64,000 nucleotides of DNA from Nemertoderma westbladi (GCA_032718475.1 JAUCBJ010001498.1:8948-72947); one strand, 5' to 3'; shown: positions 1 through 19,550, numbered from the stretch's first letter. Notes: generated by a model from the letters alone, not told the origin. Made by a program: numbers and translations.

Positions 1-3000
1 ACTCACCTGTGAGCAACCCATCACACACTCATCTGTGAGCAACCCATCACACTCTCATCTGTGATCAGCCCATCCCAAACTCACGTGAGCAACGGCATCC
101 AACACTCACCTGTGAACAACCCATCCCAAACTCACCGGCGAGCAACCAACCCCAATCACCTGTGAGCAACCCACATCCCACTCTCACCTGTGAGCAACCC
201 ATCCCATACTCACCTGTGAGCAACCCATCACTCACTCACCTGTGAGCAACCCATCCCACACTCACCTGTGAGCAACCCATCACTCACTCACCTGTGAGCA
301 ACCCATCCCACACTCACCTGTGAGCAACCCATCCCACACTCACCTGTGAGCAACCCATCCCACACTCACCTGTGAGCAACCCATCACACACTCATCTGTG
401 AGCAACCCATCACACTCTCATCTGTGATCAGCCCATCCCAAACTCACGTGAGCAACGGCATCCAACACTCACCTGTGAACAACCCATCCCAAACTCACCG
501 GCGAGCAACCAACCCCAATCATCTGTGAGCAACCCATCCCACTCTCACCTGTGAGCAACCCATCCCACACTCACCTGTGAGCAACCCATCACTCACTCAC
601 CTGTGAGCAACCCATCCCACACTCACCTGTGAGCAACCCATCACTCACTCACCTGTGAGCAACCCATCCCACACTCACCTGTGAGCAACCCATCACTCAC
701 TCACCTGTGAGCAACCCATCCCACACTCACCTGTGAGCAACCCATCCCACACTCACCTGTGAGCAACCCATCACACACTCATCTGTGAGCAACCCATCAC
801 ACTCTCATCTGTGATCAGCCCATCCCAAACTCACGTGAGCAACGGCATCCAACACTCACCTGTGAACAACCCATCCCAAACTCACCGGCGAGCAACCAAC
901 CCCAATCACCTGTGAGCAACCCATCCCACTCTCACCTGTGAGCAACCCATCCCAAACTCACCGGCGAGCAACCCATCACTCACTCACCTGTGAGCAACCC
1001 ATCACTCACTCACCTGTGAGCAACCCATCCCACACTCACCTGTGAGCAACCCATCACTCACTCACCTGTGAGCAACCCATCACTCACTCACCTGTGAGCA
1101 ACCCATCCCTCACTCACCTGTGAGCAACCCATCACTCACTCACCTGTGAGCAACCCATCCCACACTCACCTGTGAGCAACCCTTCCCACACTCACCTGTG
1201 AGCAACCCATCCCACACTCACCTGTGAGCAACCCATCACACATTCACCTGTGAGCAACCCATCACACAATCACCTGTGAGCAACCCATCCCAAACTCAAC
1301 TGTGAGCAACCCATCCCACTCTCACCTGTGAGCAACCCATCCCACACTCACATGTGAGCAACCCATCCCACACTCACCTGTGAGCAACCCATCCCACACT
1401 CACCTGTGAGCAACCCATCCCACACTCACCTGTGAGCAACCCATCCCACACTCACCTGTGAGCAACCCATCCCACACTCACCTGTGAGCAACCCATCCCA
1501 CATTCACCTGTTTGCAACCCATCACACACTCACCTGTGAGCAACCCATCACACACTCACCTGTGAGCAACCCATCACACACTCACCTGTGAGCAACCCAT
1601 CCCACACTCACCTGTGAGCAACCCATCACTCACTCACCTGTGAGCAACCCATTCCACACTCACCTGTGAGCAACCCATCACTCACTCACCTGTGAGCAAC
1701 CCATCACTCACTCACCTGTGAGCAACCCTTCCCACACTCACCTGTGAGCAACCCATCCCACACTCACCTGTGAGCAACCCATCACACACTCACCTGTGAG
1801 CAACCCACCACACTCACCTGTGAGCAACCCATCCCACACTCACCTGTGAGCAACCCATCACTCACTCACCTGTGAGCAACCCATCCTACACTCACCTGTG
1901 AGCAACCCATCACTCACTCACCTGTGAGCAACCCATCCCACATTTACCTGTGAGCAACCCTTCCCACACTCACCTGTGAGCAACCCATCACACACTCACC
2001 GGTGAGCAACCCATCACACACTCACCTGTGAGCAACCCATCCCAAACTCAACTGTGAACAACCCATCCCACTCTCACCTGTGAGCAACCCATCCCACACT
2101 CACCTGTGAGCAACCCATCACTGACTCACCTGTGAGCAACCCATCCCACACTCACCTGTGAGCAACCCATCCCACACTCACCTGTGAGCAACTCATCCCA
2201 CACTCACCTGTGAGCAATCCATCCCACACTCACCTGTGAGCAACCCATCACACACTCACCTGTGAGCAACCCATCACACACTCACCTGTGAGCAACCCAT
2301 CCCAAACTCACCGGCGAGCAACCCATCCCACACTCACCTGTGAGCAACCCATCCCACACTCACCTGTGAGCAACCCATCACACACTCACCTGTGAGCAAC
2401 TCATCACACACTAACCTGTGAGCAACCCATCCCAAACTCACCGGCGAGCAACCCATCCCACACTCACCTGTGAGCAACCCATCACTCACTCACCTGTGAG
2501 CAACCCATCCCACACTCACCTGTGAGCAACCCATCACTTACTCACCTGTGAGCAACCCATCCCACACTCACCTGTGAGCAACCCATCCCACACTCACCTG
2601 TGAGCAACCCATCCCACACTCACCTGTGAGCAACCCATCACACACTCATCTGTGAGCAACCCATCACACTCTCATCTGTGATCAGCCCATCCCAAACTCA
2701 CGTGAGCAACGGCATCCAACACTCACCTGTGAACAACCCATCCCAAACTCACCGGCGAGCAACCAACCCCAATCACCTGTGAGCAACCCATCCCACTCTC
2801 ACCTGTGAGCAACCCATCCCACACTCACCTGTGAGCAACCCATCACTCACTCACCTGTGAGCAACCCATCCCACACTCACCTGTGAGCAACCCATCACTC
2901 ACTCACCTGTGAGCAACCCATCCCACACTCACCTGTGAGCAACCCATCCCACACTCACCTGTGAGCAACCCATCACACACTCATCTGTGAGCAACCCATT

Positions 3001-4358
3001 ACACTCTCATCTGTGATCAGCCCATCCCAAACTCACGTGAGCAACGGCATCCAACACTCACCTGTGAACAACCCATCCCAAACTCACCGGCGAGCAACCA
3101 ACCCCAATCACCTGTGAGCAACCCTTCCCACACTCACCTGTGAGCAACCCATCACACACTCACCTGTGAGCAACCCATCCCAAACTCAACTGTGAACAAC
3201 CCATCCCACTCTCACCTGTGAGCAACCCATCCCACACTCACCTGTGAGCAACCCATCACTCACTCACCTGTGAGCAACCCATCCCACACTCACCTGTGAG
3301 CAACCCATCCCACACTCACCTGTGAGCAACTCATCCCACACTCACCTGTGAGCAATCCATCCCACACTCACCTGTGAGCAACCCATCACACACTCACCTG
3401 TGAGCAACCCATCACACACTCACCTGTGAGCAACCCATCCCAAACTCACCGGCGAGCAACCCATCCCACACTCACCTGTGAGCAACCCATCCCACACTCA
3501 CCTGTGAGCAACCCATCACACACTCACCTGTGAGCAACCCATCACACACTAACCTGTGAGCAACCCATCCCAAACTCACCGGCGAGCAACCCATCCCACA
3601 CTCAACTATGAGCAACCCATCCCACTCTCACCTGTGAGCAACCCATCCCACACTCACCTGTGAGCAACCCATCACTCACTCACCTGTGAGCAACCCATCC
3701 CACACTCACCTGTGAGCAACCCATCACTCACTCACCAGTGAGCAACCCATCCCACACTCACCTGTGAGCAACCCATCCCACACTCACCTGTGAGCAACCC
3801 ATCCACACTCACCTGTGAGCAACCCATCACTCACTTACCTGTGAGCAACCCATCCCGCACTCACCTGTGAGCAACCCATCACACACTAACCTGTGAGCAA
3901 CTCATCCCACAGTCACATATGAGCAACCCATCACACACTCACCTGTGAGCAACCCATCACACACTCACCCGTGAGCAACCCATCACACACTCACCTGTGA
4001 GCAACCCATCACACACTCACCTGTGAGCAATCCATCACAAACTCACCTGTGAGCAAACCATCCTACACTCACCTGTGAGCAACCCATCCCACTCTCACCT
4101 GTGAGCAATCCATCCCACACTCACCTGTGAGCAACCCATCACTCACTCACCTGTGAGCAACCCATCCCACACTTACCTGTGAGCAACCCATCCCACAGTC
4201 ACCTGTGAGCAACCCATCACACACTCACCTGTGAGCAACCCATCACACACTCACCTGTGAGCAACCCATCCCAAACTCACCGGCGAGCAACCCATCCCAC
4301 ACTCAACTGTGAGCAACCCATCCCACTCTCACCTGTGAGCAACCCATCCCACACTCAC
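1..4358. repeat. Satellite 1 (26-bp monomer CACCTGTGAGCAACCCATCCCACACT), left segment; continues beyond window start
   Basis: Directly visible tandem 26-mer with point variants. Confidence 0.98.
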
Positions 4359-17800: not shown

Positions 17801-19550
17801 CTGTGTGCAACCCATCCCACACTCAACTGTGAGTAACTCATCCCACACTCACCTGTGAGCAACCCATTCCACACTCATCTGTGAGCAACCAACCCCACTC
17901 ACCTGTGTGCAACCCATCCCACACTCAACTGTGAGTAACTCATCCCACACTCACCTGTAAGCAACCCATTCCACACTCATCTGTGAGCAACCAACCCCAA
18001 TCACCTGTGAGCAACCCATCCCACACTCAACTGTGAGTAACTCATCCCACACTCACCTGTGAGCAACCCATTCCACACTCATCTGTGAGCAACCAACCCC
18101 CAATCACCTGTGAGCAACCCATCCCACACTCATCTGTGATCAATCCATCCAAACTCACGTGAGCAACCCATCCCACACTCATCTGTGAGTAACCCATCCC
18201 ACACTCATCTGTGAGCAACCCATCCCACACTCATCTGTGAGCAACCCATCCCACACTCACCTGTCAGCAACCCATCCCATACTCACCTGTGAACATCCCA
18301 TCCCAAACTCACATGTGAGCAACCCATCCCGCACTCATATGTGAGCAACCCATCCCACACTCACCTGCGAGAAACCAACCCCACTCACCTGCGAGCAACC
18401 CATCCCACACTCATCTGTGAGCAACCCATCCCACACTCATCTGTGAGCAACCCATTCCACACTCACCTGTGAGCAACCCATCCCACACTCATCTGTGAGC
18501 AACCAACCCCACTCACCTGTGTGCAACCCATCCCACACTCAACTGTGAGTAACTCATCCCACACTCACCTGTGAGCAACCCATTCCACACTCATCTGTGA
18601 GCAACCAACCCCACTCACCTGTGTGCAACCCATCCCACACTCAACTGTGAGTAACTCATCCCACACTCACCTGTAAGCAACCCATTCCACACTCATCTGT
18701 GAGCAACCAACCCCAATCACCTGTGAGCAACCCATCCCACACTCAACTGTGAGTAACTCATCCCACACTCACCTGTGAGCAACCCATTCCACACTCATCT
18801 GTGAGCAACCAACCCCAATCACCTGTGAGCAACCCATCCCACACTCATCTGTGATCAATCCATCCAAACTCACGTGAGCAACCCATCCCACACTCACCTG
18901 TGAGCAACCCATTCCACACTCATCTGTGAGTAACCCATCCCACACTCATCTGTGAGCAACCCATCCCACACTCATCTGTGAGCAACCCATCCCACACTCA
19001 CCTGTCAGCAACCCATCCCATACTCACCTGTGAACATCCCATCCCAAACTCACATGTGAGCAACCCATCCCGCACTCATATGTGAGCAACCCATCCCACA
19101 CTCACCTGCGAGAAACCAACCCCACTCACCTGCGAGCAACCCATCCCACACTCATCTGTGAGCAACCCATCCCACACTTACCTGTGAGCAACCCATCCCA
19201 AACTCGCATGTGAGAAACCTATCCCACACACAAACTGCGAGCAGCCATCCCACACTCAACTGTAAGCAACCCATCCCAAATTCACCTGTGAGCAACCCAT
19301 TCCACACTCACCTGTGAGCAACCCATCCCACACTCACCTGTGAGCAACCCATCCCACACTCACCTGTCAGCTACCCATCCCATACTCATCTGTGAGCATC
19401 CCATCCCAAACTCACATGTGAGCAACCCATCCCACACTCACCTGCGAGAAACCAACCCCACTCACCTGTGAGCAACCCATCCCACACTCATATGTGAGCA
19501 ACCCATCCCACACTCACCTGTGAGCAACCCGTCCCAAACTCACCTGTGAG
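8824..19550. repeat. Satellite 1, right segment with higher-order repeats; overlaps the DYRK exon/intron junction
   Basis: Same monomer. Identical pseudo-ORFs recur at offsets of 284, 1292 and 3170 bp. Confidence 0.98.

Follow-up and report, generated by a model that had tools for sequence, protein, structure and literature searches.

A 26-nt tandem array starting at the splice donor of a DYRK2/3-type kinase gene in Nemertoderma westbladi

Known junction minisatellites and the DYRK2/3 array

Several human genes carry minisatellites that span an exon/intron boundary and reiterate the 5' splice site (donor) down the intron. In intron 7 of F7, a 37-bp variable-number tandem repeat reiterates the donor, and splicing takes place from the most upstream donor; neither the G triplets, shown to be dispensable there, nor the number of copies made a difference (PMC1557585, Borensztajn et al. 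2006). Junction minisatellites of the same kind occur in IFI6 (6-16; 25 pseudo-sites), CBS, LMNB2, and PDGF (PMC1557585). Amphioxus "mirage" minisatellites, found in Adh3, BflGb6, BflGb9, TnC, and PGBD5, leave splicing undisturbed and have been suggested as a way in which introns arise (PMC3087553, PMC3902484). Across such published repeats, splicing is mostly from the first donor. We report on a 26-nt tandem array that starts at the donor of a DYRK2/3-type kinase gene from Nemertoderma westbladi, within a 64,000-nt stretch of DNA (GCA_032718475.1 JAUCBJ010001498.1:8948-72947) that we refer to as the window.

The kinase gene lies on the minus strand of the window, with four coding exons seen. 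One of these (19544..19713, minus strand) ends ELLT-G, contributes 56 DYRK2/3 kinase residues (top match human DYRK2, E 6e-28; DYRK1A weaker, E 4e-19), and has the first array unit as its donor. The array begins at 19543 on the minus strand, which is the first intron base, directly after the exon end TTACTCACAG, and it comprises at least 586 units, 584 of them complete, before running off the window edge at position 1. No next DYRK exon was found by tblastn within the 64-kb window, and the array-bearing intron is at least 19.5 kb long, with its 3' end beyond window position 1. An earlier note on this DNA had given the same monomer consensus, taken the first unit for the real donor, and put the number of units in the window at about 580, all of which was borne out. 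Its picture of one giant intron of stacked units needs correction, as the units form two blocks rather than a single stack. The proximal block (8826..19543, minus strand) contains 417 units in higher-order repeats, and the distal block (1..4358, minus strand) contains 169 units and continues past the window edge. Between them sits a 4.5-kb LINE-type retroelement (4359..8825, plus strand, antisense to DYRK; RVT_1, E 3.5e-27), the pol region of which is spread over several frames and the 3' end of which carries a TCAA-repeat tail. At 8805-8830 (plus strand), this tail passes into array TCAC, an overlap that suggests microhomology at the insertion site.

Unit length ranges from 23 to 28 nt, with 464 of 584 units at 26 nt. 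The units fall into 99 types with a mean identity of 91% to the consensus and are organized as higher-order repeats, and the order of variants is identical in the array on either side of the retroelement. The earlier note had read every junction as CTCACAG/GTGAGT (the slash marking the boundary). We found CAG/GTGAGT at 323 of 584 junctions and CAG/GTRAGT at 326, while the remainder differ, with even the fused AG/GT present at only 362. GT begins 431 of the 584 units and has been lost from 153, and AG precedes 510. The exon end is identical to the last 10 nt of the monomer at 9 of 10 positions. An inverted repeat surrounds the junction (ACTCAC, then AG, then GTGAGT), and the junction region folds better than shuffled sequences do (z = -2.96; reached by 0/100 shuffles). 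Judged from its sequence, the array is a junction-spanning minisatellite, with its first unit at the real exon/intron boundary and the donor reiterated in units many, but not all, of which are intact; its unit types and higher-order repeats also fit ordinary repeat turnover, with concerted evolution and variant blocks.

The resemblance to the F7, IFI6, CBS, LMNB2, and PDGF repeats extends to the first monomer lying across the exon/intron boundary, the donor being reiterated down the intron, and the presence of G triplets in the units. Those human cases have 5 to 25 copies, whereas at least 586 are present here. They also differ from the DYRK locus in that the DYRK donor is a perfect CAG/GTGAGT and all intact DYRK units end in CAG, giving AG/GT junctions. 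With the amphioxus mirages, the array shares tandem duplication at an exon/intron boundary in an invertebrate and the retention of AG/GT in many but not all units. The mirages compared here comprise 2 to 7 units of 60 to 160 bp, apart from Adh3, in which the units are 10 to 72 bp long, while the DYRK array covers more than 15 kb, has higher-order structure, and contains a retroelement. Its copy number is more than 20 times that of the published junction minisatellites compared here. In our literature search, neither a junction array with hundreds of copies nor recursive splicing across such an array came up, although supplements could hold larger mirage arrays.

Donor choice within the array

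On balance, we favor the reading that the minisatellite came from tandem duplication at the DYRK2/3 exon end, that its copied donors are likely silent, and that the intron is likely cut from the first donor. A tandem duplication that included the splice donor would have seeded the array, and the inverted repeat ACTCAC/GTGAGT may have favored slippage. Each copy would then end in CAG because the exon ends in CAG, making the fused AG/GT a by-product of the seed. Since two further donors of the DYRK gene also follow CAG, duplication at such a donor would automatically give AG/GT units. Amplification was likely ordinary repeat turnover, as the higher-order repeats and the tolerated retroelement insertion suggest, and introns that fill with minisatellites would have provided the setting in the host genome. 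The first donor is predicted to win through exon definition and first-come selection, as experiments have demonstrated for human F7. The earlier note had offered, as its alternative to stepwise splicing, a junction duplication amplified into decoy donors, and this fits the data and the published precedents of F7, CBS, and the amphioxus mirages. The origin of the array, the use of its first donor, and its neutrality are what we infer; its anatomy, the decay of AG/GT, and the lack of the intron in distant relatives can be read directly from the sequences.

We compared conservation among monomer positions within the array, the copies of which are non-independent. The AG/GT positions had a mean identity of 0.896, against 0.915 for the other monomer positions, so the expectation behind the earlier note's proposed check, that AG/GT would be less variable than the rest of the monomer, did not hold. 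Against random sets of four positions, AG/GT conservation gave P = 0.71 when counted by copy (71% of draws were as good) and P = 0.93 when counted by events. The donor +1 G had the lowest identity of all 26 positions (76%), being replaced by A in 120 of the 586 units and by T in 20, and on a spanning tree of distinct unit types it ranked first for change events in three of the four phasings and second in the remaining one. The AG/GT copies are decaying rather than preserved, and the proposal that stacked mini-introns are removed stepwise failed this test. From proximal to distal, GT is intact in 33/60, 224/330, 22/26, and 153/169 units. This trend hints at selection against decoys close to the exon, but we make no claim of it, as higher-order copying leaves the units non-independent.

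Use of a decoy donor would, by the predicted reading frame, be unproductive and harmful. Splicing from donor 2 would cause a frameshift, donor 3 lacks GT, and every later donor would bring in a stop 18 codons beyond the junction. As to masking of decoys by RNA structure, the real donor did not stand out clearly as more accessible: 7/70 decoys were at least as open when the 9-mer was considered and 32/70 when the 6-mer was. No canonical G-quadruplex motif (loops up to 7) was found, and 87 motifs were present when loops up to 20 were allowed. Sequencing run X1 (share 0.08) gave only dispersed-repeat fragments over 44900-46800 and 19492-21200 and covered no exon, making it uninformative either way.

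We also assessed the copied junctions as potential acceptors. Under the human motif Y5+N0-4YAGGT, as used in PMC10156609, a Y5 tract is present at 3/362 YAGGT sites, and 0/3 of the gene's own acceptors pass the same motif. The array unit has 10 G's between -25 and -4, versus 1 to 3 in the gene's three real acceptors. Branch-point-like CTCAC motifs number 397 over the 586 units, and the consensus A lies 29 nt ahead of the next unit's AG. The branch-point consensus is yUnAy, and 29 nt is a usual distance from branch point to AG.

Several observations weigh against silent copies and exclusive use of the first donor. That single donor, although perfect, faces 323 equally perfect CAG/GTGAGT rivals. 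In F7, perfect CAG/GTGAGT pseudo-sites drew 70 to 90% of splicing from a weaker upstream authentic site, and in IFI6 and CBS the nearest pseudo-sites were also used (PMC1557585). The failure of the gene's three real acceptors under the human Y5 motif weakens that test, and the CTCAC motif with its 29-nt spacing means that internal acceptors are not impossible. Finally, the 16 "intronic" nucleotides of the monomer are more exon-like than a pure junction-spanning origin predicts.

Alternative explanations for the array

The last of these points bears on a different account, less likely but live, in which the repeat gave rise to the intron itself. The last 38 bases of the exon (19544..19581, minus strand), which begin with GT and end with AG and are the candidate monomer source, would have been tandemly duplicated, and the junctions would have become dual donor/acceptor sites. 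All extra copies would have been spliced out, restoring the frame, and the unit would have shrunk to 26 nt and expanded until the array reached the next acceptor. With GT at the start and AG at the end of each unit, a mis-splice at a decoy donor would leave a remnant removable in a second step. On this tentative and less likely reading, a conserved kinase domain would have acquired an intron more than 19 kb long through duplication of the exon's own GT...AG-bounded end and its amplification by hundreds of times, and the result would be a self-correcting array of dual splice sites supplying both ends of the intron. The mechanism has precedent in the dual-specific splice-site arrays of UBC/VCX3A (PMC10809524), the 24-nt repeats of fission yeast (PMC3629103), and the Rogers model (PMC4974935), all of which share with the DYRK array AGGT-delimited units of which whole-unit removal would restore the frame. 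Unlike the units in those cases, which are few and clearly exonic, the DYRK units show a partial exon likeness, and their length is not a multiple of 3.

We evaluated this exon likeness in several ways. Between the monomer and the last 38 nt of the exon, 24 of 26 bases align with three gaps, and the first 16 nt of the monomer, where unrelated sequence would be expected under plain junction duplication, match the exon at 11/12 positions. Such a match was reached in 46/20000 shuffles, 280/20000 synonymous recodings, 112/20000 draws of one further null, and 0/2200 window stretches, and its score was attained by 0/438 natural GTRAG 16-mers and 55 to 89 of 10000 random tails. The gene's other three intron starts lack the likeness (454 to 4536 of 5000, versus 17/5000 for the array intron). 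Because the likeness was first noticed by eye and tested only afterwards, the post hoc p values (0.002 to 0.014) are optimistic. It also needs three gaps and two substitutions, and the missing middle is kept in no unit. If the likeness is real, the monomer is a contracted version of the exon end, and expansion of dual sites may have created the intron. We set aside the classic form of the Rogers model, in which the unit includes sequence of the next exon, because the monomer, compared by eye, is unlike the GYP-type continuation codons of relatives, which leaves only a form of the duplication model that involves the exon end alone.

We looked for the position of the array intron (intron 4) in the best 80 of 448 confirmed DYRK loci from metagenome contigs; the DYRK region is 52 to 62% identical to relatives from many animal phyla. 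ELLT-G is read straight through in 79 of the 80, the remaining locus (L020) being unscorable owing to a frame break just before ELLT. Thus, intron 4 is present in 0/79 scorable loci, all of them distant relatives, and is probably a lineage-specific gain, in keeping with birth from the repeat. Against this, the 80 loci include no close relative, and many of them come from cDNA or from intron-poor or fungal sources. Introns 1 and 3 likewise occupy CAG/G positions unseen in the relatives inspected, although neither has repeats, which implies that this lineage gains introns by other routes too. Intron 2 (FK/GF, phase 0) is common to two relatives, L060 and L079. A K/V intron found in 15 intron-bearing genomic loci is without a counterpart in this gene (the count fell from 16 with the exclusion of L052, where upstream sequence aligns as coding); the nearest proteins of these loci include those of a termite (97%) and a tunicate (91.5%). 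Three of the four DYRK introns (at 45855, 20646, and 19543) therefore occupy CAG/G positions unseen in the inspected relatives and the K/V intron is missing, a pattern that suggests heavy intron turnover in the lineage.

Still less probable is that the intron is removed stepwise through internal AG/GT ratchet points, several units per step, with the array kept for that purpose. The 362 fused AG/GT sites, the CTCAC motif in most units, and the intact GT in 153/169 distal units are what one would cite for it, and in tandem repeats of human genes, AGGT sites with weak motifs can take on both splice-site roles (PMC10809524). Like known ratchet points (PMC8605326, PMC10156609), the DYRK sites place YAG and GT side by side within a long intron. 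Ratchet points are, however, sparse, conserved, usually preceded by a pyrimidine tract, and defined by RNA intermediates, whereas the DYRK sites are dense, decaying, G-rich, and recognized from sequence. In Drosophila, ratchet points have been called ultraconserved (PMC8605326), while the array has no excess of AG/GT conservation and its +1 G is the most mutated base. In addition, the acceptor context is G-rich, a 4.5-kb insertion has been tolerated, and intron 2 of the same gene, at 24.3 kb, has no 26-nt donor array, with the shortest complete intron at 569 nt.

It is very improbable that PCR-amplified long-read sequencing or assembly produced most of the array; a head-to-head pair of PacBio ultra-low-input amplification adapters (identified from methods passages of PMC13694257) was assembled at 63950-64000, but the 99 unit types, nested higher-order patterns, and matching variant order around the retroelement would not be yielded by polymerase slippage, and variant structure of this kind speaks for a genuine array. 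The two adapter copies abut another, 32-nt array, indicating an artificial join and a library that was likely PCR amplified, which leaves the copy number of the array uncertain.

Genomic setting and significance

The other three DYRK2/3 coding exons, all on the minus strand, are at about 45856..46562 (the first one seen, its start codon not established), 45115..45286 (followed by the FK/GF intron), and 20647..20774 (with the HCDLKPEN catalytic loop). Inside intron 2, on the same strand, lies an intronless TRIP13/pch2 gene (32326-33720, minus strand; Pfam TRIP13_N, AAA, and lid), the relatives of which are about 41 to 58% identical. Two more minisatellite families, one of 50 nt and one GC-rich of 26 nt, fill intron 2 at 21230-29911, 39050-40905, and 43345-44101, and a reverse-transcriptase retroelement (40872-43307) interrupts the GC-rich array as well.

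Tandem arrays make up 56% of the window, and the families other than the 26-nt array do not start at DYRK exon ends. The second large array (54529-63949, plus strand) consists of about 295 copies of a 32-nt unit, with a perfect MAG/GTRAGT donor in 205 units; such a donor arose in 178/200000 shuffled 32-nt monomers. Its units contain the donor, then CTGAC and CAG, and look like a GT...AG piece of 26 nt to which 6 nt have been added. The donor and flanking bases are again the most variable part, with the +1 G at 84%. No upstream exon for this array was evident on the plus strand among the open reading frames read by eye. A 1.47-kb AT-rich element occurs twice, at 49982-51447 and 53049-54499, with 97% identity; close to the end of the second copy, a small hairpin and CTAG lie at the very start of the 32-nt array.

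Taken as a whole, the feature is real and is likely an unusually large and silent member of a class of repeats for which human and lancelet genes provide known examples. Even as an ordinary junction minisatellite, it puts 5' splice-site choice to an extreme test in nature, in which one essential-looking donor is set against at least 323 identical perfect copies. Intron gains with an identifiable source have been described as scarce (PMC4974935). Should the acceptor come from the array as well, the array would represent one of these rare gains with an identifiable source sequence, and it would link intron birth by tandem duplication to giant satellite introns.

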